A stretch of 63,101 bases of DNA, the filler included, from Reclinomonas americana ATCC 50394 (lineage: Eukaryota), in NCBI GenBank assembly GCA_048213135.1. It is 7 parts of 2 records of this genome, joined end to end, with 100 filler letters (N's around TTAATTAATTAA, not from the genome) between each part and the next. Parts side by side here need not be neighbours in the genome. Positions count along the whole stretch, not along the records: positions 1 to 30,757 come from PS015110.1; 6 more parts are not named here. One strand, given 5' to 3'. This document shows positions 10,773 through 61,110 of the stretch, one piece after another. Both the position numbers and the translations under genes were made by a program. Position 1 is the stretch's first letter, and each line of letters starts with the position of its first letter. The notes under the pieces were generated by a model, which saw only the letters and a list, made by a program, of their open reading frames with translations, made no database searches and was not told where the DNA came from.

Positions 10773-13185
10773 CCCAGGCAACGAAGTCGGGGAACTGAGG
10801 TGGCATGGGAAGAGAGACTAAGCAACGCAGCAGCCAACATCACGAATGTGATTGTGTGCAAGCAAGAAAGGGGCGCAGAGAAGATAAACGCGAAAAATGA
10901 TCTTGCCAAGGTCGAGAGATGGCACACACGCACAGTGAGAGACTCAGAGAGAGTGAGAGAGAGACGCACACTGACACAGTGAGAGAAGTATGACAAGTGC
11001 GATCATGCTCTGTGTCATCGAAGATAAAAGCAGAGGAACATGACAACGCGAGGAGGAAGCACAGTCGTACACACAGAAGATGCGCAAACGAGTGAGAAAG
11101 AGCGCGACAAGGAGCGATCATGCAGAAAAAGGACACGCCATGGTGAGGAGAAATGAAGGCACCGAAAGAGTCAACACGACGAATGACATTTTGTGAGAGC
11201 AAGCACGAAAGACTGTCGCCCATGCTTCACACAGGTAGGCGATGGTAAAATGACGAGGAGAAAGAGAGTGAAGGAGTTGGCACACTCAGCAGCAAGCATA
11301 CCGCTGTTTTCAAGCAGCAGAAAACAATGCCTTGTAAAATGACAACACAGGTAAGAAACCTCACTCGTCTCTCTCTCTCTTTCTCTCTNNNNNNNNNNNN
11401 NNNNNNNNNNNNNNNNNNNNNNNNNNNNNNNNNNNNNNNNNNNNNNNNNNNNNNNNNNNNNNNNNNNNNNNNNNNNNNNATTGACGGCGTCTTGATGCCG
11501 ACCCACAGCCAGCGCAATCGAGTACACATTGAATGCCTGCGGTACGATGAGCGACCCATCTTCGGCGTCGCCGCGCGGTAGGAACAAACACACAAACCTC
11601 GAGGAAGAGCGTTCCCGGCGGTCCCATGGCGAGCGCCACATCGCGACACTCGCGCGCAATCGCCGCACCCAGATTCACCTTGAAGTCGTACGCCAGCATC
11701 ATGCCGAGCTTGGTGCGCGCTTTGATCACCAGCGGGTGATTCGGCCCGAAGGCTTCGGTGCGATCGCGCACCACCTCCTCCAGCAGCCGCACGGCACACT
11801 CAAAGCGGCGCGCAGCGTGCATGCTGTGCGCCACGCCATACTCGGCGTCGCACACAGCCATGTGGTCCGGCGGATCCAACTGGCACGACAGCTCGTACGT
11901 CTCCTGCGCCGCGGCCTCGGTTTTCGAGCAGTTGGAGTCGAAGGCAAATTGCGCCTCCGCCAGCTGCTGGCGTGCGGCAAGGGTGGCGGGGTGGAGGAGG
12001 CCGTAAGTGGCCTCGCGTACTTTTACATTCTCCGTCATGAGGCGGAACGATTCCGCAAAGTTCGAGTCCTCGATCAGGGCTCTGAGACACGGCGGGATGA
12101 GGGGAAGGAGGGAAAGGGTAAGAGAGAGAGAGAGAGGTGGGAGCGATGGCGCAACTGCGCTTGATACTGTTGGGTGGCAAGGGTGAAAAGGTGGTCTGGT
12201 TGCAGCAGTTCGGAGAGTCGCGCGTGTACTTCGCCGAGGATAGAGGCGGATTTGCCGAAGCGGCCGGCGGAGCAGAGCACTGGGGGAAAGGACAAGGGTG
12301 AGAGAGGGGATGAGAGGGGAAGAGAGGGGAAGAGAGGGGAAGAGAGGGGAAGGGAGAGAAAGGGAGGGAAAGGGAGAGAAAGGAGAGGGAAGGAGAGGGA
12401 AGGAGGGGGAAGGAGGGGGGAAGGAGGGGGGAAGGAGGGAGGGAGAGGGGAGAAAGGGGAAGAGCGGGGAAGAGAGGAGGAAGTGGAAGAGAAGAAGGGA
12501 CAAGGCGGGGGAAGGGNNNNNNNNNNNNNNNNNNNNNNNNNNNNNNNNNNNNNNNNNNNNNNNNNNNNNNNNNNNNNNNNNNNNNNNNNNNNNNNNNNNN
12601 NNNNNNNNNNNNNNNNNNNNNNNNNNNNNNNNNNNNNNNNNNNNNNNNNNNNNNNNNNNNNNNNNNNNNNNNNNNNNNNNNNNNNNNNNNNNNNNNNNNN
12701 NNNNNNNNNNNNNNNNNNNNNNNNNNNNNNNNNNNNNNNNNNNNNNNNNNNNNNNNNNNNNNNNNNNNNNNNNNNNCCTTGTTTCTGCAGCCATCGCTGC
12801 ACATGTGCCAACGGACAATCCCATCCCTTTCCCCTTTCCACGTACCTTCACCTTCCTCCACCCCCATCTCCTGCATGGCCTCCACCACCGCCTCCTCCAC
12901 CTCGCCCCGCACTCCCAACCGCGACCACACCAACAACCCACTCGCCTCTCCCCTTCTCTCCCTCAAATACGGCACCTCCACCACCGCCTCTCGCACTGCT
13001 TCCGTCACCGACAAGTGCGCCCACACTGCCAACGACGACGAATGCCGTTGCGGCCACTGCCACTCAAACGACTCACTGGGACTGGTCGGTGGCGCGGTGG
13101 AGCTCTCGTAAGGAGTGTCAATGGTGGTGGTGGTCGTCGCTGATGGCTGCTTCATGAGGTCTTCCAGTGCGTGGAGGAGCACGGC
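8505..13185 (-). CDS. Multi-exon TPR protein (kinesin-light-chain / nephrocystin-3-like TPR_10/TPR_12 repeats) with acidic C-terminus; 5' end uncertain, two gaps
   Basis: Repeated motifs LLEEVVRDRTEAFGPNHPLVIKARTKLG, REATYGLLHPATLAARQQLA, ALEILDSTVGKAHDDTL, RTEIVGPDHL, ALPLLNKVFEHRREYYGE. Exons join in frame through GT-AG introns; the last intron (~9885-8894) holds a minisatellite. Confidence 0.75.
9060..9900. repeat. Degenerate intronic minisatellite (core ctctctcactgcaccctcgccttgctca)
   Basis: Core or variant recurs at ~9062, 9172, 9359, 9473, 9584, 9663, 9777 and 9844. Confidence 0.85.
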
Positions 13186-13270
13186 TGACAGAGAGAGAGA
13201 GATAAAGAGAGGTTACTTTCCGAACATGATTGTGAGGCAGGAGGTGTGAGTGCTCACAAGCACAAGTACA

Positions 13271-13363
<93 letters not shown>

Positions 13364-13439
13364 ACACGCTGACTGTTTCTGTCTTGCACGTCTGTTCGAC
13401 TTTGTCTTTCTTCCTCTTCTTCTTGCAGACACACTTCCT

Positions 13440-13471
<32 letters not shown>

Positions 13472-14085
13472 ACTCTTCTCTCACTCTTTCACTTGACTGC
13501 CTCTCAGTCATTTCATGCATACGTGTTCGACATGTGTTTTTCGTCGCCTCTTCTTCTTCCCTCACAGCTGCAGACACTCTCTGACACACACACATACACA
13601 CACACACTCTCTCTCACGCACACACACACACACACTCTCTCTCTCTCGCACTCACAATTTCTATGTCTGTCATGCATGTTTCTCTTTTCCTCCTGTTCTT
13701 CTTCCCTCAGAGCTGCAGACACATTCCTCTAACACTCACTCTCTTCTCTCTCTCTCACACACACATCACTCTATAACTCATTTCACTGACTCCACTCTTC
13801 TTTTCTCTCTTCTTCTCTCTCTCATTGTCTGCAGTGGTACGCACTGTCGTCTTGGATGGCGATGCGCTGTGTCATGTTGGCCTCTCTCTCTCACTCTCTC
13901 TCTCTCTCTTCTTTCTCTCTTGTCTTGTGGCGTGGCCTTTGTTGTCCGTCCTGTCGTCCTCTTTTGTTCTTCCGACTTGCGACGCTCTTTCCGTACGTGG
14001 GAAAGAAGAAGAGCTCGTCCTTGTCAGTCAACTGGAGTTGAAGCCATTGCAACGCCGCAGAGAAACAATCCTCTGTACACGTTTA

Positions 14086-17000
14086 CTATGAAGGTCCGGA
14101 AGTGGACGTTCCTGCATCGCCAAGCACCGACGACTCGCACAGGCGTTTCAGTTCTTCGTACACGTATGACGCCGACACGCGTGACGCTTGTGGCCTCTAT
14201 TGCGCGCACTAAATGAGTTCACCTCGATTCGCCAGTCGACAACTTCGTAAACACGCAACCCAGCACTGGCGAATCAGATTGCGAATGTCTTCTGGAACGA
14301 CTGACCGCACGTCTTCATCATCTAGGTCGCCCGGTTGGACTCCGTCATGCATACGACGCATGATATCCAGCAGAGTGACCCCAGAGAACGGCTCACGTCG
14401 AGTGGCAATCAACCAAATCAGCGAACCGAGACCATACACATCCGCTCGTTCATCGTACTGTGGTCGGTATCAACGCCCCAAATAATAATGTACAAAGTCT
14501 GAAGCAGATGGAAGTTACCTCCTGATCCAACATGGTTTCCGGCGCAGCGTACGCCACAGTCCCGTGATTCGACTGCATCTTACCGAGAGTACCGTGAATC
14601 TTGGCCTCCCCAAAGTCGCAAACCTTGGCCACGAGTCGGTCCTCGCTGATGAGAATGTCTGCGAGCGTAGGTTTAGCCGAGGTGGTATCCAAAGGGCGCA
14701 TCCACTGCCGTCATACACCAGTCACGAAGTGTCTGCAGTGGAGAGAGGGACGCAACTCTGCGGCTTGAGGTCACGATGTACCACTCGTCGTGAGTGCATG
14801 TAGACCACCGCCGACGCCACTTGCAAGAGCAAGCTGAACAGCTGCTGAGTCGTCACTTCCGCTTTTCTCACAAGATCGTGCAGTGTTTCGGCATCGCCCT
14901 CGTCATCCTCTTGACCGACATATTCAAGGACAAGACCAAGTCCACTTCGATCATCGTTGCACACGGCCATCAGCTTTACAACATGTGGATGCCTGCGCAG
15001 AAACGAGTGAGCGACGACAGAAAAGCGATGTACAAGTAAAACAAAGGCGCAACTCAAGTTGCACCAGCAGTGACAGCTCGTTCTCGAAACACTCACGAAC
15101 ACGCTGCAGGTCCTCAGAGCTCCTGACCATGTACCGTTTGTACGCAACAATATGCATTACACCGCCAAGATGGAGACCGGCTCGGAACACGACGTTTTGG
15201 CCTGCGAGTATGCACAAAGCAGTGAACATCACTATGTATGCGCACAGATACGTCCAAGTCGCACCATTGCCGATCTGTCTGGATGCGATTTCGAGATCTG
15301 AGAACGGCACCACGGGTGCGCTGATTGCAAATCTGGCTGTCCTCTCTGTCACCAATTCGGCTGTCACATTTATGCGACTAATGTCTGTACCGACGAGTGC
15401 TGAGAATAAAATCTACAACATGGACGGATGCGAGCGTCGCACGTAACTGTCATATGATAGGAACAACAGGCGGATGCTCTCGTGTTGTCCATCGGGGAAC
15501 AGCGCGTGGAGCGAGTCGCGAACAAGCCGCATGACGCTCACATACTCTGCATCTTCGAGTGCAGAGAGACGGGCCAGGTGAGACACGCGATGGCGCACAT
15601 CCCGCAAGTTCTCCACAGCTTGAATCTGCAGAGCAGAAAGTCATGAGTTGACTATCTCACGAATTCGGAAGGTTACCGATTGGAAGGGCATACCATAGCG
15701 GCGTTTGCAACCAGGTGCACCGCCAGTTGGTCTTTGTTCGTGACAGGGTTCAGGCGTGTGCGACTCTGTAGTAGGTCCGCATCGCAGCAAGCGTCGGCAG
15801 GAACAAAGGTGATGTACAACAGTAGTGTGCTTAGCAGCGACACATCCATGTCCGTTGTCACTCCGCTTCTCTTGAATGTGCGAACAGCGTCGTAGTTGGA
15901 CGGGAAAAGCTCAACCGAGCGCATACGTATGCTACCGCGCTTGTCCAGCGTCATGCGACAGTATCTACAGGGCACAATCAGCGATCAAATCTCGGCCCCA
16001 GAGCAGAGACCGCGATCGTGCACCTTGGTGGCGGCGTTGGAAGACAGAGTTCCTCAACATCAAATTCTCCTGGGAAGAATTCGGCGACGAGTTGTTGCAG
16101 CAGCGAGCCAAGAGCCAGTGGGATGATCTCGTGCACGACTTCCGTAAGCATCAAAATAGGACGGCGGTCGCTGTGCTTATCCGACACAGAGTGAGACAGA
16201 TCATCTCATGAGATATGAAATAATAGCGGCAGGCAAGAACCTGAGAAAGTCCATATGAAAGAGAGCACGCATTTGGCCCTGCATCTCGTCTACTTTCAGC
16301 CGCATCTCGTCGCGTTCAGCGGCTATTGCGGCAAGCTGCAAACGGAGACATTCCCATTCCTCGGCGGTGACGCGAGTGGCAAGCGCAGCATTGGCGGATT
16401 CCACCTCGCGTCTGAGATGTTCACAATCAGCGATAAGCGCGTCGGTGGCACGCTGGGAGGCGACCATGTCTGCTGAGGTGGAGGAGACTTTGTACTCAGC
16501 GTCAGCAAGGTCCTCTGCGAGTCGACCTCAATAGGTGACGTGAGACACGGGGAAGGCGCACTCTGAGAGGAGCATGCGCAGGCAGCGACAAACCTGGATC
16601 TTTCATCTGCTGTTGAAAGCTGGCCAGCTGAGCGGTCAAATCGTCCTTCTCGCGCACGGCCACGGAAAGCTGAGCTGACGCTCGATCACACTCAGCTCCC
16701 AGCTGTGTGCTGCTATGCTGAAGCTCCAAGTTCGCTTGTTGCAGTTGGGCCACGATCTCCTCTAAATCTTGTCGCTGTTGATCCCATTCTCGCTGTTGCT
16801 GCTCATGACGCGCCTCGGCGAGTATGCACCGGATTTCGGCATCGGTGCGTTGTTGTGTGTCAACTGCAGAGTCAAGGACAGCCTGGACGACGCCGAAGGC
16901 ACACGGAACACGAGAATGGCATGCAGACACGTGAGGAGCATGAAAGCATGATTAGCAGCGGACAGAGCGAACAGTATGTACTGTTACCTGCAGAGGCGGC

Positions 17001-17794
17001 ACTGCGAGATCAAAGGGAAAACGCACAACGACGATATGCAACGTTGAAGGATTACGTCAAAGCAACGTCACACGCACCTGGTAGTGGCGACGAGAGAGGA
17101 CGTGGTTGCTGCAGGTTACGTGGCGCTGGTGGCTCAGCGAGGCGATCAAGCAATTCAGCCACTTGATGTTTGCCGCAGTCGCGAGCCACCTGAGCCGCTG
17201 TCTTGCCTGCCTTGTTGACCATGCGAATGAGACCGGGATCGTGAGTGGCGATGAGTTGTACAATTGCTTCATGGCCATTCTTGGCAGCAATGTGCAGCGC
17301 TGTGGACTCTGGGTTGCGGGAAGTAGAATTGGAGATCGTCCGCACCATATCCGGTGGACATCGTCCCTCTTCCGCAAGCAGCCACTCCACCACATGTAGA
17401 TGCCCATAGCAAGCGGCCATCATCAGCGGCGTCCAGCCCGAATCATTGACCCTCTTTGCGAGCCGCGGCCCAACGCCACTCTTCGCCCACAGATACTTCA
17501 GCACCGGGAGATGGCCCTTGAACGCGGCATAGTAGAATGCCGAGCTCCCGAATGTCATCTCCTCGCTGTTGAGCAATATTTCTGCCCCTTCGCGCGCCAC
17601 CAGCTTGCGCAGTGCATTCACATCGCCTTCCTCTGCCATTTCACACGCCCTCTTCCGCTGCTGACGACTGCCGAGTGCGCCAACGAGCACAACAGAGGAG
17701 GAGCGAGTTAATGACGAGTTCAATAAATCATCAGTGCACACCATACTGCAACGCACAAGCCGCCACTCAGTTCTGCACCCTGTGCTGCACCCAT
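14086..17794 (-). CDS. Ankyrin repeat - coiled coil - HEPN-like domain - TKL-type protein kinase (multi-exon)
   Basis: N-terminal MGAAQ. Ankyrin: SAFYYAAFKGHLPVLKYL, GWTPLMMAACYGHLHVVEWL, TALHIAAKNGHEAIVQL. Then coiled coil, MDVSLLSTLL...VENLRDVRHRVSH. Kinase: IGNGGQNVV, VAYK, ENE, HPHVVKL, HRDLKPQN, KVCDFG, GTVAYAAPE, DVYGLG, IRQCW. The junction near 16.2 kb was not fully resolved. Confidence 0.8.
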
Positions 17795-17982: not shown

Positions 17983-20900
17983 TCACCTCGCCACCACCTT
18001 CAACGCCTTCTTCGACTTCTTCACCTTCTTCTTCTTCTTCCCCTCTCCCTCCTCCTCCTCCTCCACCACCCTCGCCTTCTGCCTCTTCACCTCCCCCTCC
18101 CCCTCCCCATCCTCCCCCTCATCCCCAGAATCCGCCGCCTCCCGCCGCGACCGCTTCTCCCCGACCGCCTCCTTCTTTTGCTTCTTCGACTTTTTCGCCT
18201 TCGCCACCTTCACCTCCTCCTCCTCCATCTCAAACTCCGGCTCCAGCCCACTGTCCTCCTCGTCGGCCCACACCGCCTTTCCCTTTTCCACCATCTCCAC
18301 CTCCACCTCCTCAACCTCCCGCTTCACGCCACTCTTGGNNNNNNNNNNNNNNNNNNNNNNNNNNNNNNNNNNNNNNNNNNNNNNNNNNNNNNNNNNNNNN
18401 NNNNNNNNNNNNNNNNNNNNNNNNNNNNNNNNNNNNNNNNNNNNNNNNNNNNNNNNNNNNNNNNNNNNNNNNNNNNNNNNNNNNNNNNNNNNNNNNNNNN
18501 NNNNNNNNNNNNNNNNNNNNNNNNNNNNNNNNNNNNNNNNNNNNNNNNNNNNNNNNNNNNNNNNNNNNNNNNNNNNNNNNNNNNNNNNNNNNNNNNNNNN
18601 NNNNNNNNNNNNNNNNNNNNNNNNNNNNNNNNNNNNNNNNNNNNNNNNNNNNNNNNNNNNNNNNNNNNNNNNNNNNNNNNNNNNNNNNNNNNNNNNNNNN
18701 NNNNNNNNNNNNNNNNNNNNNNNNNNNNNNNNNNNNNNNNNNNNNNNNNNNNNNNNNNNNNNNNNNNNNNNNNNNNNNNNNNNNNNNNNNNNNNNNNNNN
18801 NNNNNNNNNNNNNNNNNNNNNNNNNNNNNNNNNNNNNNNNNNNNNNNNNNNNNNNNNNNNNNNNNNNNNNNNNNNNNNNNNNNNNNNNNNNNNNNNNNNN
18901 NNNNNNNNNNNNNNNNNNNNNNNNNNNNNNNNNNNNNNNNNNNNNNNNNNNNNNNNNNNNNNNNNNNNNNNNNNNNNNNNNNNNNNNNNNNNNNNNNNNN
19001 NNNNNNNNNNNNNNNACTTGCTCACTCGTCTTTCGTCGCAGACTGGTGTCATACGTGGCCTCGCGTTGCGAGAAATCACGGCACTTGGAGTTGCATCTGT
19101 TGTGGTGCAAGCACATTCTCAGCTCGCACGGACACGCGCTCCGGCGACAGGGTCTGTCGGCGTCGCTGGTGCCGGCCGGTCTCAATCCGCTGGAACTCGA
19201 GGCCGGTGTGTCGCTGTCGGTGCGCGCGTCGTCGTCGGGCGTGTCGAGCACGGCTGTGGCGGTGCTGCGTGCGCTGCACTCGTCGTTGACGCGCTCGCAC
19301 AATGCGTTGCAGCGCATTTGCGACGAGAATGCATACACGCTGCAGTTTTTGTGCACGGCCGTCAAGGCGGCGACCGNNNNNNNNNNNNNNNNNNNNNNNN
19401 NNNNNNNNNNNNNNNNNNNNNNNNNNNNNNNNNNNNNNNNNNNNNNNNNNNNNNNNNNNNNNNNNNNNNNNNNNNNNNNNNNNNNNNNNNNNNNNNNNNN
19501 NNNNNNNNNNNNNNNNNNNNNNNNNNNNNNNNNNNNNNNNNNNNNNNNNNNNNNNNNNNNNNNNNNNNNNNNNNNNNNNNNNNNNNNNNNNNNNNNNNNN
19601 NNNNNNNNNNNNNNNNNNNNNNNNNNNNNNNNNNNNNNNNNNNNNNNNNNNNNNNNNNNNNNNNNNNNNNNNNNNNNNNNNNNNNNNNNNNNNNNNNCGA
19701 CAAATATACACAAGCTCCTTTCCCCTTTCTCTCCTCACCTGTGCACAAACGGCGGCGGCACCGACTTGACCACCAGTGGCAACTCGTACTCCGGCGTGGC
19801 ATAGTACGCCGCATCAATGTACTCCTCCTCGTTCAGTCGCAACGCCGTCACCAGCGCCTCCGCATACTGCTGATGCTTGATGCAGCGACGCACGGCCGCC
19901 GGCGTCACCTCCAGCGCCAGCGCCGTCGGGTGGAAGGCCGTGGTCACATCGCGCGAAAAGATGCACACACCCTCCGGAGTCGCCACGGCAAATTGGCGGC
20001 CGTTGGGCGAGAAGCGCAGCGCCGACGCACGAATGGAGCGGCGAATGGTGCGCGACGAGAGCGCCGAGCCCTCGCGCACGCCGGGCAGCGTGTCGCGCGA
20101 GAAGCCAAACTTGTCGCGCAGGTCCGAGTACGCCGAGAGGGCGATCGGATCCAGCGCGCCGGCCTCGGTCATGAACTTGGAGTTGAGCTTGTCGGCCACA
20201 CCGTCCAGCGAGCGATTGTGCGAGAGCTGGAACTTGCGCAGCAGCGTGCGGTGCTGTGCCGAGTACAGGCATACCCATTTCGACTCGCCGGCGGCCAGCA
20301 CGCACGTGCCGTCGCCCGAGTAGCACACCGAGGTGAAGTACTTGCCGATGCTGGTGTTTTCGTGCGAGCGGCGGTCGGTGGTGCGGCGGCCGCCGGCCAC
20401 GTCGCGCGTGCCTTCGATGGAGCCCATCAGGGTGCTGGGAAAGGGAAAGGGGGGGAGTGAGGAGGGGGGAAGGGAAAGGGGGAAGTGAAAGAAGCGAGAG
20501 TAAGAAATATGGAGAGAGCTCAAAGGAGGAAGGAAAGAAGAGAGAGGAGAGAGCGAAGAAGAGAAAAGAGAGAGAAGCAATGGGAGCACACGGAGGGAGG
20601 ACGGCGAAGGGAGGGAACAAAGCGTGATGGAGATGAGTTTAGAATCAGAGTACTTGCTCATCACGGTCCTCCTGTCGCTTGCAACTCATTCTCTCACACA
20701 TAAAAGGGGGAGAGGACAAGGAGAGAAAGGTTGACTCGTGGTATCATCACACAACATGGTCGATCAGTCACATTCTGCGGATGCACAACCAGGGACAGAA
20801 GAAACAACAGTTGTGAAAATCTGGTTACACCTCTCTCGTCAGTCACACATCTCGAACTCCTCTCTCACACACAAACGCAGAGGGACAGGAGGCGGAAAGG

Positions 20901-23900
20901 AGTCAGTCTCATTCAGTCGAAGGCACGAAAGCAGCGACAGATTTGCATTCTGAGTATCACCAGAAAACAAACACATCTCGTATTCTCTTCAAGCTCTCTC
21001 ATCCCGAGAACCGAAGAGAATGAACGAAAGGAAGAGAACTCAGAGTGCAATTCCACACTCTGTTCTCTCATCCATTCTCTTCTAAGATAGAGAGAACGAA
21101 GAAGAAATAGGGCAGGGCTGAATTCCGATTATCATCAGAGCATCCGCACAGCTTGCCTTCTCACAGATGAACGAGAGAGAGAAAAGGGAAGAGATGACAG
21201 AGTGAAGGCGAGAGAAAAAGACTGAGCTGCATTGGGCGATCGAGAATCCGCCTCCATTCCCTCCTCTCGCTCTCTCTCACAGTCCACTCCCGCACCCCAT
21301 GGCACTCTGCGAACGACAGAAGAAAGAGAAAGCCAGGTTTAAACTCTGCACATCAATCTATCTCGAACATTTTCATCTCTCTTTTCCATCTCCCTATCTC
21401 TATCTCTCTGTTTGTGTGTGTCTCTCTCTCTCACACACACACAAACACTCTCTCATTCTTTTGTTTCTCATACGCCCCCTTCCCATTCTCTTTCCCTCTG
21501 TCCCCACCATCTCTCTCTTCCCTCCCACCCCCTTCCCCTTTTCCCTTTTCCCCTCCCTTGCCCTTGACTCACCCCTCCGACGGATCCCAAAAGTGCAACT
21601 GCCCATCCAGCGTGGCCGAGCACAACTCACGCCCATCCGGCCGGAAAGCCAACGCCAACACCTCCGCATCGTGCTCCAGGATCTCGCAGTGTCGCGTGCT
21701 GACTCCAATGGCTGCACCGGGGCCACTCGCAGTCTTGCCTGCAAGGGAAAAAGGTCAGCAACATCTCCTTTCCCCTTCTCCCATTCTCCTTCACCCACCT
21801 GTGGTGTACAAATCCCACACGCGCACAGAGCGATCCCACGATCCCGACGCCACCATTCCCGACGTGCTCGGACTGAATGCCACGGCCGACACCGGCGCCG
21901 TGTGCCCACCAAAAACCTCTAGCACGCGACCCGTCTGCAACGCCCACACCGTCACCTCGAAGGGATCCAAGGCGCCGGCCACCACCAGTTCGCCACTCGG
22001 ATCCGTGTCGACACACGTCAGCTGTGCCGGCGTGGCCTCTGGGGGCGTCATGGTGCGGAACTTGCGATAGCGCGTGAGATCAAACGCCTGCACCGTGCCA
22101 TCGCGACACGAGGCGAGAAGGGCGCGCGAGGGGGTGAACGACAGCCCCGTGATGCCGCCACTGCCGGCATTGGCGTTGGATTGTGCGCCGCCGACGCCTT
22201 CGCCCACAGAAAATGTCACAAAGCACTGGCCCGAGCGTGTGTCCCACACTGCGTGCACACACAAAGTGAGGAAAGAAAAGGGAAGAGATGGCGGCGCACA
22301 CACACCCCTTTGCCCCAAACCTTTGATCTTGCCATCGTCACCGCCCGTGGCAAATACCGACCCGTCCAGCGAGTAGGCGAGGCAAGAGACGTCGAGGGTG
22401 TGCCCCTGCTGCTTGAGCACGTACGTCTCCGACTGCCACTCCCACACCAGCAGCTGGCCGAGACGCGCACAGCCGAGCGCCATCCACTCGCCCGACGGAT
22501 TCACGTCCACCGACGACACGCGCGTCTCACTCACGCGCAGCGTGTGCACCGGTTCCAGCGTCGGCAGCTCGTACAGACCAAACACGCCGCTGCTGAAGCC
22601 GACCACCAGCATGTTGCAGGAGAGCTGGAAGCGGGCAGAGGTGACGCGAGCGGGGGATTGGTTGAAGAAGTGTTTTTCGATGCGCTCCCAGGGTTTCTGG
22701 CGCTCTGCGGGAAGAGGGAAATGAGGGGAAGGGGGCGGGAAGGGAATAATGAGGGAAAGGGGCGGGGAAGGATTGTCTTCAATCGCACCTTCTCAAACCT
22801 ACTTTGCACCGTTTCCTCCACTCTCTCTCTCTCTCGCGCGCGCGCTTTCTCTCTCTCTCTTATTGTTTCGCTCCCTGTCTCACATTCTCTCTCACACACG
22901 TCATGCATTTTCTGACATCTTGGTCACTCTCCCTCACTCTGATATACGCAAGCATACTTCGTTCGCATTCCCTCTCACTCCTCTCCCCTCCCCTTCTTCT
23001 CCCACCGCTCACCTCCCAACTCAGTCCTCCGCTTCCAGTGAAATAGCGCGCCATCCGCCGACACGGAATACATCTCCTGATAGCCATTGGCGAAGGCACA
23101 GCCCACCACACTCTCGCGATGTCCGGCCAGCGTCACTGTGCGATGCGGCACCGTACCGCGCGACTTGTCTGCCTCCGCGTCGTCCGTCTCCTCGTCCTCC
23201 ACCTCCACCTCCACTACTTTGCCTTCGTGTTGCACGCGCAGTGGTATGATGCGCACGCAATTGTCGCCGCTGCCGGCGGCCAGGGTGGAGGAGTCCTGCG
23301 TGAGGGTGGAGAGCGGGAAGAGTGAGGAGAGGAAAAGAGAGGTGAAAAGGGGAAGGGAGAACAGAGAGGAAAGGAAGTGAGGAAGGGAAGGGAGAACGGC
23401 GAGGAAAGAAAGGGAGACGAGCGAAAGGAAGGGAGAAGTGAGAATGGGAAGGGAGAACAGTGAGGAAAGGAAGGGAGAAAGGTGAGGACAGGGACGGAAA
23501 GAGTGAGAAAAGAATGCAGATGAGTGAAGGAAGGGAGAATGGCGAGGAAAGAAAGGGAGACGAGTGAAAGGAAGGGAGAAGTGAGAATGGGAAGAAAGAA
23601 CAGTGAGGGAAGGAAGGGTTGAGAAAAAAGGAAGAAAAGGAGGGAAAGGAAAGAGAACGGCGAGAACAGGAACCAAGAACAGTGACAAAAGAATGGAAAG
23701 GAAAGAGAACAGTGAGGACAGGAATGAAGAACAGCAAGGAATAGAATGGAGAAGAGTGAGAAACGAATGGAGACGAGTGAGGAATGGAACGGAGACAGTG
23801 AGGAAGGAAGAGAGGATAGGGACGAAGGGAAGAGAGAACAGTGAAAAAACAGGAGGGTAGAAAAGTGAGGAAAAGAAGGGAGAACCATGAGGAAAGAGAA

Positions 23901-55300: not shown

Positions 55301-58300
55301 GAAATGTCGTGCAGCTGCTCCGAGATGCGCGTCTCCTGCACACGAATCGTCTCGTGGTGCTCCTGCAGCGAATCCGTCAAGGTCGCACTGCGAAGGCGCT
55401 CCTCCGCCAGCTCGGCCTCCAACTTGGCCGCGCGTGTGTGCAACTCTGTGTTCTCCGTCTCAAACGCCGTCACCCGGCGACGCAGCTCCTCAATGTCACC
55501 CTGCAGCCGCGCCTTTTCGCGCAACAAATCCTGCGTCTCCTGCTCCAGGTGCGCCACTCGCCTCCTCAGCTCCTCGACCAGCGCCTCCAAGTCGAATCTG
55601 TCCTGCGCGTGCATTGTCTCCTGCAGCAGCTCTGCAATGCGCTCCTCGTAGGCCTCGTGCTGCACTTGCACCTGCGCGAAGACGGTAGGTGAGCAGGTGC
55701 GGGGGGATTGGAGGGCAGAGGGGCGACAGACCTCGCCGAGTTGCTCCTCCAAAATCACCACGCGCTGCTCGAGGTAGGCCAGACGAGCGCCGTCGACCTT
55801 GTCTTCCACAAAGTTGGGGCGTGGGTGGTTGCGGATGCGCACGGCGCGGGCCGCGTACTGCAGCGTGTTTTGCGTGTCGAAGCCGTCGCCCGGGTCCGGC
55901 GAGACGCAGGTGATCATCAGCTGTGCGGGTGGGAGGAGAGGGTGAGAGAGGAATGGGGAAGGGGCAAAGGGGAAGGGATGGGTGTGTACGCGGAGACAGA
56001 TAGAGACGAAAAAGAAAGTGATGATGATGATGATGAAGAAGAAGAAGAAGAAGCAGATGGATGCAACCGTGTTCAGTTGCATAAAATAAAAGAGAAGGGA
56101 AGAGAGAGAGGGGGGAGAAGACACAGAGAGGGAGAGACGAGGGGGAGAAGAGACAGAGAGGGAGAGAGTCATGAGAGCTGAGCGATGAGTGGTGAAAGTT
56201 TGGTCCAAGTGACCATTCAATGGAGAGAATAAGAAGATGTTTGGAAAGGGGAAACGAGGGATGACTGCAATGCAAGAGCTGCACAGAGAAATGTAAGGAA
56301 AGGACAGACGAAGAAGAAATGCAGAACGAATCGAGCGGAACGTATAACTGTGTTGAAGGTGCAGCTAATGAGAGAGAGAGAGACGAGGGGGAGAAGAGAC
56401 AGAGAGCGAGAGAGACAAGGGAGCTGAGCGATGAGTGGTGAAAGTTTGGTGCAAGTGACCATTCAATGGAGAGAATAAGAAGATGTTTGGAAAGGGGAAA
56501 CGAGGGATGACTGAAATCCATGAGCTGCACGGAGAAATGTCAGGAAAGGGTAGACGAAGAAGAAATACAGAGAGAGAGAGAGAAGAGGGCTAAGTGAAAG
56601 GACGGTGTAGCTGCCAAAGAGCAGAGAAGCTGGCGCCGCAGGTGATCAATAAATGGAGAGGGACAAACAGTCAAGGGGGAAAGGACAACTGAATGGAGTC
56701 CCACGCTGAGAAAAGATGTCAATGAGAAGGGAAAGAGCTGAGTACGTAAAGGTATTCAGTTGCTGTGAGGGAAGAGAGAGAGATTCCAATTATTCTTCTC
56801 CTTCGCACCCTTCTCTACCCTTTCCCTCTCCTCACCGTTCGACAATTGCCTCCAAACGCATGATGCAGCAAGCTCGTAAGCTTGGCATCGCGGTACGGCA
56901 CCGCGGCGAGATTCGGCGGCCCACCCGGCTGATTCAGCGCCATGATGACACGCGACAGCGTCAAAATGTCCTTGTTGTCCTTGGCCTGTCCGGAACCGGC
57001 CAGATCCACCACGTGAAATCTCGACTCCGTGGCCCGATGGTCGTGCGTCGCCCGCTGCCGCAGCGCAACGCACAGCATGAGGTGCGACTGACGCAGAACG
57101 TTCTTGGTGCGCGTGCGTCGCCGATGNNNNNNNNNNNNNNNNNNNNNNNNNNNNNNNNNNNNNNNNNNNNNNNNNNNNNNNNNNNNNNNNNNNNNNNNNN
57201 NNNNNNNNNNNNNNNNNNNNNNNNNNNNNNNNNNNNNNNNNNNNNNNNNNNNNNNNNNNNNNNNNNNNNNNNNNNNNNNNNNNNNNNNNNNNNNNNNNNN
57301 NNNNNNNNNNNNNNNNNNNNNNNNNNNNNNNNNNNNNNNNNNNNNNNNNNNNNNNNNNNNNNNNNNNNNNNNNNNNNNNNNNNNNNNNNNNNNNNNNNNN
57401 NNNNNNNNNNNNNNNNNNNNNNNNNNNNNNNNNNNNNNNNNNNNNNNNNNNNNNNNNNNNNNNNNNNNNNNNNNNNNNNNNNNNNNNNNNNNNNNNNNNN
57501 NNNNNNNNNNNNNNNNNNNNNNNNNNNNNNNNNNNNNNNNNNNNNNNNNNNNNNNNNNNNNNNNNNNNNNNNNNNNNNNNNNNNNNNNNNNNNNNNNNNN
57601 NNNNNNNNNNNNNNNNNNNNNNNNNNNNNNNNNNNNNNNNNNNNNNNNNNNNNNNNNNNNNNNNNNNNNNNNNNNNNNNNNNNNNNNNNNNNNNNNNNNN
57701 NNNNNNNNNNNNNNNNNNNNNNNNNNNNNNNNNNNNNNNNNNNNNNNNNNNNNNNNNNNNNNNNNNNNNNNNNNNNNNNNNNNNNNNNNNNNNNNNNNNN
57801 NNNNNNNNNNNNNNNNNNNNNNNNNNNNNNNNNNNNNNNNNNNNNNNNNNNNNNNNNNNNNNNNNNNNNNNNNNNNNNNNNNNNNNNNNNNNNNNNNNNN
57901 NNNNNNNNNNNNNNNNNNNNNNNNNNNNNNNNNNNNNNNNNNNNNNNNNNNNNNNNNNNNNNNNNNNNNNNNNNNNNNNNNNNNNNNNNNNNNNNNNNNN
58001 NNNNNNNNNNNNNNNNNNNNNNNNNNNNNNNNNNNNNNNNNNNNNNNNNNNNNNNNNNNNNNNNNNNNNNNNNNNNNNNNNNNNNNNNNNNNNNNNNNNN
58101 NNNNNNNNNNNNNNNNNNNNNNNNNCTCGTTGCGGCAGCGCTGAATGGCGTGGAAAATGGTGCTGATGCAGCGCTCCGGGTCGCGCACGTACCGCTCCGT
58201 CACCGGCTCAATGTAGAAGCCCATCTCCAGGTTGCCGCGCACGCGCAAATCGGTCGGAATGCGCGGCGGTGTGGCCGAACGAGTGAGTGTCGGTGGTCGT

Positions 58301-61110
58301 GTGCGCGCATCGCGCGTTCCCGCCGACTGTATGCGCCCGGAAGACGACGGTGCCGAGGCGCCGATACCGGCGGCCAGCGGTGACTGCGCCGGCGACGAGG
58401 CCGAGAGGTTGAGCGGTGAGGCCGCAGGCGAGGCCGCGGCCGTCATGGTCGGCTGGAGGGTGGTGAACGAGTTCGACGCCTGCACCGACGGTACCAGCAG
58501 GTCCTCAATGTACTCCGGATGCAGGTAGACCAGCGAGATGCGCACTTCGAAGGAGTACGAGTTGGCGTGGCGGTTCTGGAGAGGGGGAGAGGAAGGGAAG
58601 AGGGAAGAAGGGGGAAAGGAGGATGTAAGGAAAAGGCGAAGAGAGGTGTCTATCTGAGAGAGCAACACGTAGACCAAAGCGATCTGACTGCACGGCGATC
58701 AATAAAAGAAAACATCAGAGCAGTAAAGCGTGCAAACCAAGCAGACAGAAACAGCACACAACAACAGAGAAAGAAATCGAGAGCTGACACGCAAGCCTGA
58801 AACACGAGAGTAGGTGAAGAAGCATGCAGCCCTTGTGCAAAGGCGGAGAGAAACAGAAAGAGGATCAGGTAACACTGCGGCATTCCAAATTGCGTGGGAA
58901 TAGCACACAGAACAAGAGAGCAAAGAAATCGAGGGCTGACACGCCAGAGAGTAAGAGATGAAGCGTGCATGAAACCCTTTCTGTGTGTGTGAGAGAGAGA
59001 GAGAGAGNNNNNNNNNNNNNNNNNNNNNNNNNNNNNNNNNNNNNNNNNNNNNNNNNNNNNNNNNNNNNNNNNNNNNNNNNNNNNNNNNNNNNNNNNNNNN
59101 NNNNNNNNNNNNNNNNNNNNNNNNNNNNNNNNNNNNNNNNNNNNNNNNNNNNNNNNNNNNNNNNNNNNNNNNNNNNNNNNNNNNNNNNNNNNNNNNNNNN
59201 NNNNNNNNNNNNNNNNNNNNNNNNNNNNNNNNNNNNNNNNNNNNNNNNNNNNNNNNNNNNNNNNNNNNNNNNNNNNNNNNNNNNNNNNNNNNNNNNNNNN
59301 NNNNNNNNNNNNNNNNNNNNNNNNNNNNNNNNNNNNNNNNNNNNNNNNNNNNNNNNNNNNNNNNNNNNNNNNNNNNNNNNNNNNNNNNNNNNNNNNNNNN
59401 NNNNNNNNNNNNNNNNNNNNNNNNNNNNNNNNNNNNNNNNNNNNNNNNNNNNNNNNNNNNNNNNNNNNNNNNNNNNNNNNNNNNNNNNNNNNNNNNNNNN
59501 NNNNNNNNNNNNNNNNNNNNNNNNNNNNNNNNNNNNNNNNNNNNNNNNNNNNNNNNNNNNNNNNNNNNNNNNNNNNNNNNNNNNNNNNNNNNNNNNNNNN
59601 NNNNNNNNNNNNNNNNNNNNNNNNNNNNNNNNNNNNNNNNNNNNNNNNNNNNNNNNNNNNNNNNNNNNNNNNNNNNNNNNNNNNNNNNNNNNNNNNNNNN
59701 NNNNNNNNNNNNNNNNNNNNNNNNNNNNNNNNNNNNNNNNNNNNNNNNNNNNNNNNNNNNNNNNNNNNNNNNNNNNNNNNNNNNNNNNNNNNNNNNNNNN
59801 NNNNNNNNNNNNNNNNNNNNNNNNNNNNNNNNNNNNNNNNNNNNNNNNNNNNNNNNNNNNNNNNNNNNNNNNNNNNNNNNNNNNNNNNNNNNNNNNNNNN
59901 NNNNNNNNNNNNNNNNNNNNNNNNNNNNNACAAGATCGTCGAGGGAGCACTGCAGCGCTGAACAGACGAATGCAATGCCGACGGGCAAGCCTTCATGAAC
60001 GAGACCGTCCACAGAAGAACAACAAAGCCCGTTGACACCAAAGAGAGAGAGAGAGAGAGAGAGTCGGCAAGCACAGCCTCCTGTAAGACAAAGCACAACG
60101 AGCAACAGACGAACGCAACGCCGACATGCGAAACGACATGCAGCCTGCCGATCTTCTTCCCCCCTGTGCATCTAGCGCCTCACCTCCAACAACCTCCACA
60201 CATCGCGAATAAGCCGCGGCGTGACTCCACACTCATCCTCCTCCGCCAACGGCACCATATCCGCACCCCCACCCAACGCCGTGTACGTCTTGCCGGTATT
60301 CTCCGGCCCGTACGTGAACAGCGTACAATTGGTGCCGCCGACAAAATCAGACACCATCGGTGCCACACATCGCGAATAAAACGATTCCTGTGTATGTCGT
60401 CGTCGATATACGCATACATAAACAAAGATGCAACGTGCGCGTTGATGAGAAGAGAGGTCGTCGAGCGTGGAGGCGATGGGACATGTCCACTCTCGCACTC
60501 CCCCAGCCCGCCACTCACCTGCGAAGTGTCGCGATCGAACACGTGCGAGAAGGTGAATCTGCGCACAGACGAGATGCGGTGAGAGAGGGAAGGAGGAAGG
60601 AGGAGAAGAGAAAAATGGCGGGAAAATTGCATGCGGGGGGAGACAAGTGGTGTGTGCATGAGAGTGTGCGAAAGTGTGTGCAAGTGGTGTGGACGAGTGT
60701 GGGCAAGCGAGATGAGTGAGGGAAAGTGTGCGGAAGTGTGCGGAAGTGTGCGAAAGTGTGCAGAATATGCGTGAGATAGACAGAGAGAAAGGTGTCAATA
60801 GAGTGTGCAAGTGAGAGTTGTGCGTGCGTGCGTGTGCGTTGAGAGAGAGAGAGAGCATTCTCTGTGTGTATGTCGCACAGGCTCACACGCAGTCACAGAC
60901 ACACACGTGTGTGCATATTCACTTGTACTTTGCACACTCTTGCACACACTGTCTCCCTCTCTCTGTATTCCCTTGTCTCTCTCTCTCTCTCTCTTTGCTT
61001 TCTCTCTCTCTCTTCTGTCACACTCACCTGTGCTCCGGAATCGAGATCTCCGTCGGCGACAACACATGACAGAAAGCGCGTGTCGCCAGTCGCTCATGCG
61101 AAGGACCAAC
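52341..61110 (-). CDS. Kinesin-like protein A: divergent motor domain plus coiled coil; truncated at both contig ends
   Basis: [102 protein letters not shown]...TQNTLQYAARAVRIRN; then coiled-coil exons. Confidence 0.92.
56140..56560. repeat. ~245 bp direct duplication inside a kinesin A intron
   Basis: gagctgagcgatgagtggtgaaagtttggt(c/g)caagtgaccattcaatggagagaataagaagatgtttggaaaggggaaacgagggatgactg at ~56175 and ~56421. Confidence 0.85.

Follow-up and report, generated by a model that had tools for sequence, protein, structure and literature searches.

A predicted ankyrin-repeat and coiled-coil protein kinase of Reclinomonas americana with a possible HEPN-like helical domain

The locus analyzed in this study lies on the minus strand (17794..14086) of a 63,101-nucleotide window from Reclinomonas americana ATCC 50394 (assembly GCA_048213135.1), the window being the whole stretch of DNA that was analyzed, filler included. 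The best explanation of this locus is a gene for a protein of about 912 residues, soluble or peripherally attached, that consists of ankyrin repeats, a coiled coil, an all-helical domain, and a kinase. We tentatively read the helical domain as a very divergent HEPN domain of the DZIP3/CXorf38 type, and infer the full mechanism outlined below, with an active HEPN RNase, at a probability of roughly 0.45. Together with the small share that goes to a silent HEPN domain, the HEPN reading overall comes to a little over one half.

According to the proposed mechanism, residues R542 and H547 of the helical domain would form a metal-independent RNase site in a dimer. The coiled coil would keep two chains in register, bringing two HEPN-like and two kinase domains side by side, and the ankyrin repeats would bind a regulating ligand or partner. 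The kinase would trans-phosphorylate and thereby gate or report the cleavage of RNA as part of a response to stress or conflict.

Gene Model

The exons were joined by inspection of the sequence from a chain of minus-strand open frames, and the resulting model is a prediction made from genomic sequence only. Thirteen exons and 12 introns yield one open frame of 912 codons plus the stop (2739 nt). The intron ends are GT..AG in 12 of 12 cases, with lengths of 48–98 nt in 11 introns and 214 nt in the remaining one (intron 2). The guanine-plus-cytosine content (GC) at the three codon positions is 0.67/0.41/0.60 over the whole model; this pattern is seen in 11 of the 13 exons and is flat in exons 8 and 13. 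The features of the gene are as follows.

14086..17794, minus strand: whole gene model, defined by the spliced open frame and the intron ends
17747..17794, minus strand: exon 1, putative and not secure (48 nt, 16 codons), starting with MGAAQ, a possible N-myristoylation site
17078..17660, minus strand: exon 2, ankyrin repeat region (Pfam)
16988..17001, minus strand: optional 14-nt micro-exon within the 214-nt intron 2; the frame stays open
16594..16863, minus strand: exon 3, coiled coil (sub-threshold Pfam matches, heptad score, pair prediction)
16241..16514, minus strand: exon 4, coiled coil (sub-threshold Pfam matches, heptad score)
16024..16170, minus strand: exon 5, orphan helical domain
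15694..15964, minus strand: exon 6, orphan helical domain, carrying DVSLL
15832..15846, minus strand: DVSLL (residues 481–485)
15448..15625, minus strand: exon 7, orphan helical domain, carrying RHRVSH
15578..15595, minus strand: RHRVSH (residues 542–547), an Rx4H motif with a polar H after R, inside AVENLRDVRHRVSH
15265..15399, minus strand: exon 8, part of the linker and kinase (exons 8–13 span 14086..15399)
15054..15201, minus strand: exon 9, part of the linker and kinase
15137..15148, minus strand: VAYK
14757..14992, minus strand: exon 10, Pkinase
Residues 757–764, minus strand: HRDLKPQ and the N that follows it across an intron
14519..14658, minus strand: exon 11, Pkinase
14609..14617, minus strand: DFG
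Residues 802–804, minus strand: APE
14260..14457, minus strand: exon 12, Pkinase
14086..14196, minus strand: exon 13, ending with the stop codon at 14088..14086

Three junctions have alternative in-frame solutions, and the domain content is unchanged in all of them. The micro-exon at 17001–16988 would divide intron 2 into 76 and 105 nt and produce a 923-residue variant, and exons 7 and 8 could also be joined through another donor/acceptor pair. Exon 1 hangs on the 86-nt intron 1, the acceptor of which is the second AG past a pyrimidine tract; exon 2 can also be read in frame from an ATG at 17744, which has no need of intron 1 and would give the protein a different, unspliced N-terminus. The N-myristoylation motif has Gly at position 2 and a small residue at position 6, and the putative MGAAQG start fits it. 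The membrane anchor proposed in the original prediction depends on the 48-nt exon 1, and the start at 17744 is equally open.

Could the model be wrong, with the ankyrin/coiled-coil and helical/kinase parts belonging to two adjacent genes, or with the whole locus being a pseudogene? The junctions are read from genomic DNA alone, which also weighs against the functional reading proposed above; three of them have alternatives, and the codon-position GC is flat in exons 8 and 13. Further, the frame of exon 4 stays open up to its stop at 16203..16201, and the frame of exon 5 has an ATG ~50 nt on. However, ~50 nt cannot hold a terminator as well as a promoter and a 5' untranslated region. The junction 16241/16170, the least certain one in the original prediction, is bridged by the 70-nt GT-AG intron 4, which is of a length usual for this gene and returns exon 5 to the open frame. 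The 13 exons share a strand, the frame is unbroken throughout, and the alternative solutions keep the same domains. A wrong model is therefore highly improbable, and we take the locus to be one gene, as predicted, because of this intron and the short stop-to-ATG distance that the two-gene version would leave.

The presence of ankyrin repeats, coiled coil, helical domain, and kinase in one gene, as originally predicted, is thus upheld by the Pfam matches and by the open 912-codon frame that joins them. The sequence strings on which that prediction was built (MGAAQ, DVSLL, RHRVSH, VAYK, HRDLKPQN, DFG, and APE) are all found on the minus strand where it had placed them, with the ATG of MGAAQ at 17794. 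No Pfam match was obtained for any of the seven plus-strand open reading frames (ORFs) inside the gene, and a search for paralogs within the window returned only self matches.

Ankyrin Repeats and Coiled Coil

Ten minus-strand exon pieces were scanned with Pfam. Exon 2 encodes ankyrin repeats, as is clear from the matches to Ank_2 (expectation value, E, 5.3e-24; 85 bits with a cut-off of 27.3) and Ank (E 2.4e-19, 68.8 bits, three matched stretches). Exons 3 and 4 match only coiled-coil families, below threshold (HMMR_N, 5.7e-5; CENP-F_leu_zip, 3.6e-4). A crude heptad score is raised across residues about 215–385, delimiting a coiled coil of ~170 residues.

When two copies of the exon 3 peptide were submitted to pair prediction, the interaction prediction score from aligned errors (ipSAE) was 0.47, compared with 0.00 for the best control. 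The agreement of contacts across three runs was at least 92%, and the partner had a predicted local distance difference test score (pLDDT) of at least 83. Because the contacts are symmetric, i-to-i, with a 3–4 spacing, the coiled coil is predicted to self-pair in a parallel, in-register manner. Of 30 proteins with solved structures as pairs of one chain, 21 reached the mark of the pairing tool, and of 23 with single-chain structures, none did; since coiled coils resemble many solved structures, the pass of exon 3 may partly reflect memory of those. The dimerization that had been proposed for this protein thus finds a basis in the predicted self-pairing of the coiled coil; the rest of the dimer-activated RNase we infer.

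Kinase Domain

The pieces of exons 10, 11, and 12 match Pkinase (PF00069) with E of 2.1e-13, 1.5e-6, and 1.1e-3, respectively; the first scores 50.7 bits (cut-off 31.7) and the next two score 28.2 and 18.8 bits. The spliced domain retains VAYK, HRDLKPQN, DFG, and APE and is thus a protein kinase with the intact catalytic residues that had been claimed for it. In the glycine loop, GNGQNV, the third Gly is replaced. The kinase looks catalytically competent and of the Ser/Thr type.

Among sequences of solved structures, exon 10 matches 243 kinases at E<=0.001, the best being CDK6 (36 bits), followed by SNF1, NEK7, and others, and exon 12 matches two CDPK sequences only; therefore no kinase subfamily can be assigned. 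The best 60 of the 243 kinases matching exon 10 include neither RNase L nor Ire1, in a comparison of one exon that does not amount to a phylogeny. A homolog search with exon 10 found two multi-kinase proteins at 32–34% identity, neither of them with further domains of interest. Past kinase subdomain XI, the chain continues for about 25 residues, and neither KEN nor Ribonuc_2-5A was matched in any of the ten exon pieces scanned with Pfam.

The glycine loop is cut by intron 8 (15264–15202, minus strand), the length of which, 63 nt, is a multiple of three, and which contains no stop in frame. If this intron were retained, the frame would remain open and the ATP-binding loop would gain 21 residues. 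Introns 3, 9, and 11 also have no in-frame stop if retained; their lengths are not multiples of three, and the downstream frame would be shifted.

Middle Helical Domain

Exons 5–7 (15448..16170, minus strand) encode a helical domain of ~195 residues (residues 393–590). Two motifs of this domain suggest a HEPN fold. DVSLL in exon 6 has the form D-[IV]-[ST]-L-L, a signature helix of DZIP3-type HEPN domains. It is followed 61 residues later by RHRVSH in exon 7, which conforms to the HEPN motif Rx4-6H with a polar residue (N, D, or H) after R. In a survey of the HEPN superfamily, Rx4-6H is described as the most conserved feature, with N, D, or H as the usual residue after R, and is located at the end of helix 3, ahead of the loop to helix 4; possession of the motif is taken there as predictive of RNase activity (PMC3710099). 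Among DZIP3-like HEPN proteins of oyster, Rx4-6H is found in 194 of 202; Rx4H is more frequent than any other form, with 131 proteins, and R is usually followed by N (PMC9646362).

The predicted structure of the fragment is consistent with this assignment. An AlphaFold2 model of exon 7 alone (pLDDT 76) contains helices at residues 2–20, 25–42, and 48–54. RHRVSH occupies residues 11–16, in the last third of the first helix, and this helix is followed by a four-residue loop and an 18-residue helix. Such a helix-loop-helix setting fits the published description of HEPN domains. The model of exon 6 alone had a pLDDT of 36 and was not used.

To have both motifs at a suitable distance is rare in shuffled sequences. 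When the 912-residue model was shuffled 20,000 times, D[IVLM][ST]LL turned up in 2.3% of cases, and D[IVLM][ST]LL followed by R[NDH]x3-5H 30–110 residues on in 0.14%; the motif pair is therefore unlikely to have arisen by chance, as far as a post hoc test can tell. R[NDH]x3-5H alone is common, being present 155 times in the 126,198 six-frame codons of the window.

The profile, fold, and homology searches described here used single exons; two frame-shifting introns split the domain. Independent support for a HEPN domain comes solely from a lead in the ESM Atlas, obtained with an exon 7 query that carried no hint of the hypothesis. The only named families returned were DUF4559 (0.87, 175 of 256 features shared) and HEPN_DZIP3 (0.85, 174 shared), together with a combined HEPN_DZIP3/DUF4559 cluster (0.76). 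DUF4559 (PF15112) is presumably the CXorf38 HEPN family. In this database, at least 170 shared features are seen in nine of ten true family matches and in one to two of ten chance matches.

A number of observations weigh against a HEPN domain. All of the HEPN rows of exon 7 are below 0.9, the mark under which the Atlas tool offers leads only. The two top matches (0.91) are unnamed viral clusters, and only three of the ten best family-bearing matches agree, a sign to the tool that the family is probably wrong. For the DVSLL-bearing exon 6, there is no usable Atlas match, and the recognition value is low (1327). Exons 5, 6, and 7 taken singly have no match to HEPN_DZIP3 or any other Pfam family, even at E<=10; the HEPN_DZIP3 model (PF18738) has 144 positions and a cut-off of 27 bits, and since the HMMER filters drop half-domain scores below roughly 16 bits, this result excludes only a close member. 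NCBIfam has no match for exons 5–7, and PADLOC has nothing relevant. An exhaustive phmmer search with exon 6 against 1.84 billion representatives found no true relative. Within the domain itself, H follows R in RHRVSH in place of the N typical of DZIP3-like domains, and residues 393–590 contain no Ex3[KR] acidic motif. This motif is the typical form of a second conserved acidic residue of the superfamily, in helix 2, present in many families and not in all. In our protein, its place might be taken by D479 and D481, next to SLL.

Other searches gave similar results. Word-index searches with exon 6 (an ORF piece) and exon 7 found no homolog, and scans of metagenome contigs found no relative among 507 pattern matches for exon 6 and 595 for exon 7. 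Exon 6 has no match among sequences of solved structures, and fold searches with the exon 7 fragment gave generic helical hairpins only. Members of PF18738 were found neither in the 402 bacterial genomes searched nor in 14 control genomes. Several weak matches were rejected: HerA for exon 5 in PADLOC (E 0.051, 10.2 bits); two phmmer matches of exon 6, to a WG-repeat protein and a Big_9/PKD repeat protein, which we judge spurious because each was summed over repeat stretches (five and eight); and two unrelated rows for exon 7 among solved-structure sequences (E 0.67 and 1.2).

It is thus quite possible, though at less than even odds, that the middle domain is a lineage-specific helical module with a regulatory or scaffolding role, unrelated to HEPN, and that the protein is an ordinary ankyrin/coiled-coil kinase in which the motifs are coincidental. 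The pairing of ankyrin repeats with a kinase is common in eukaryotic kinomes. In line with an orphan module, exons 5–7 are without a match in three profile libraries, exons 6 and 7 are without homologs in the phmmer and word searches, respectively, the arginine-histidine motif is frequent by chance, and the Atlas leads are sub-threshold with an unfavorable consistency check. On the other hand, coincidence does not easily explain the rarity of the motif pair in shuffles, the helix-loop-helix predicted around RHRVSH, or the return of precisely DUF4559 and HEPN_DZIP3, with 174–175 shared features, above the mark of 170, by a search blind to the hypothesis.

Another reading retains the HEPN fold but makes it non-catalytic, an RNA-binding or dimerization module beside the kinase, a mode of action put forward for several HEPN families. 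Some HEPN domains are indeed predicted to bind RNA rather than cleave it, according to the survey (PMC3710099), and the present domain has no upstream Ex3[KR] and has H after R instead of the usual N. However, R and H of Rx4H are both present with canonical spacing, and the survey treats the motif as a predictor of RNase activity (PMC3710099). We regard a silent HEPN domain as improbable. As to the HEPN domain of the original prediction, its Rx4H motif in a predicted helix-loop-helix is retained, while single-exon profiles and homologs are not found and the Atlas lead is below threshold; the Pfam and fold comparisons that it had recommended for the middle domain gave no single-exon match and generic hairpins for the exon 7 model.

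Comparison with Known Systems

RNase L and Ire1 have a kinase fold followed by a KEN-type HEPN domain, and RNase L has additional N-terminal ankyrin repeats, as described in the superfamily survey (PMC3710099). Like RNase L, the R. americana protein combines ankyrin repeats, a kinase fold, and possibly a HEPN RNase in one chain, and dimeric action is plausible here because of the coiled coil. The order of domains is different, ankyrin-kinase-KEN in RNase L versus ankyrin-coiled coil-helical domain-kinase here, and whereas KEN directly follows the kinase at its C-terminal side in RNase L and Ire1, no KEN is present after the kinase here. The kinase of RNase L is a pseudokinase, whereas the kinase considered here keeps all catalytic motifs; the long coiled coil is a further difference from RNase L, and nothing here indicates sensing of 2-5A (2',5'-linked oligoadenylate), which RNase L binds through its ankyrin repeats and pseudokinase.

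With Ire1, the protein shares an active-looking kinase adjoining a possible HEPN RNase, and side-by-side oligomerization is a natural model of activation. In contrast, Ire1 is a transmembrane sensor of the endoplasmic reticulum with HEPN after the kinase, whereas here the candidate HEPN domain precedes the kinase. No transmembrane-like hydrophobic stretch was seen on reading the model translation, a reading made without a predictor. Judged from the predicted architecture, the protein is not a member of the RNase L/Ire1 family and is at most a convergent analog, because the candidate HEPN domain lies before the kinase, KEN is absent, the kinase looks active, and the coiled coil is long. Thus "RNase L-like", as the protein had been called, holds for the inventory of parts and not for their arrangement or ancestry: there is no KEN, the candidate HEPN would be of a family other than KEN, the order is different, and RNase L and Ire1 are not among the 60 best solved-kinase matches of exon 10. 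Nor is the antiviral or cell-death role that had been attached to it supported, since nothing in the present analysis bears on such a role.

The DZIP3/hRUL138-like HEPN domains (PF18738), known in animals and Capsaspora, resemble the middle domain in Rx4H, in an upstream D-x-[ST]-L-L helix, in a listed fusion with ankyrin repeats, and in the Atlas lead of exon 7; they differ in that single exons here have no PF18738 match and in that R is followed here by H, not N. Ankyrin fusions are given in Table 1 of the survey for both the DZIP3 and the CXorf38 HEPN families, and a kinase is not given among the partners; the CXorf38 family is reported to have ankyrin, NACHT, CARD, and DEATH fusions, is listed as catalytically active, and has a Zn ribbon inserted in the HEPN domain (PMC3710099). 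The DUF4559 cluster, the best named Atlas row of exon 7 (0.87), is the point of resemblance to this family, whereas no Cys/His cluster corresponding to the Zn ribbon is evident in exons 5–7.

Ankyrin repeats and a kinase, both identified here by Pfam, also occur in one chain in the ankyrin-repeat protein kinases ILK, TNNI3K, DAPK1, and RIPK4. In contrast to the R. americana protein, these kinases are not known to have a coiled coil together with an orphan helical domain of 195 residues between their ankyrin repeats and kinase. A protein with ankyrin repeats, HEPN, and kinase in this order was not found in the literature searched, which was covered mostly at the level of listings.

Surroundings in the Window

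The window is eukaryotic DNA with short introns. On its plus strand, an uninterrupted ORF of 607 codons (5905–7725) contains FAD_binding_4 (E 8e-21) and BBE (E 5.8e-12) domains. Relatives of this ORF in contigs of bacterial genomes are 29–38% identical over nearly the full length (five loci). This intron-less oxidase in an intron-rich region is possibly of bacterial origin. The neighboring genes (21794–22792 and 45002–46780 on the minus strand and 30806–33368 on the plus strand) are ordinary and comprise a WD40 beta-propeller protein (E 2.9e-31), part of a kinesin motor (E 3.8e-23), and a pair of long coiled-coil ORFs. Among 18 long ORFs of the window that were scanned, no HEPN, OAS/cGAS-like, or other immunity-type domain was found.

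Just downstream of the 3' end of the kinase gene, at 13190–13800, long (TC)n/(GA)n and (CA)n microsatellites give rise to long spurious open frames of SLSL, ERER, and HTHT on both strands. The window also contains 27 runs of N, 6,111 bases altogether (e.g., 12517–12776, 18339–19015, 19377–19697, 57127–58125, and 59008–59929), none of which is inside the gene. Several of them are pairs of 44-base runs 12 bases apart, such as 30758–30801 and 30814–30857, which look like masking of a short repeated element and not assembly gaps.

Implications

The unfolded-protein response and interferon-driven antiviral defense depend centrally on kinase-coupled HEPN RNases (Ire1, RNase L). In the superfamily survey, these are attributed to one KEN lineage that goes back to the last eukaryotic common ancestor (PMC3710099). 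If the middle domain is unrelated to HEPN, the R. americana locus encodes an ordinary ankyrin kinase, specific to its lineage and equipped with an orphan domain, and is of local interest only. If the HEPN assignment holds, the protein has a new domain order and a new partner for HEPN. Such a joining of another HEPN family to an active kinase, in another order, would show that the design arose more than once, and would provide a simple, constitutively dimeric model for the coupling of phosphorylation and RNA cleavage.

The strongest version of this assignment, which we consider unlikely, is an independent counterpart of RNase L and Ire1 in a unicellular eukaryote, in which an ankyrin sensor would control an active kinase together with an HEPN RNase of the DZIP3/CXorf38 type that precedes it, in a coiled-coil dimer engaged in antiviral or suicide signaling. 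If true, the coupling of a kinase to an HEPN RNase would have originated a second time, by convergence, and the DZIP3-type HEPN immunity modules would extend beyond animals and Capsaspora.

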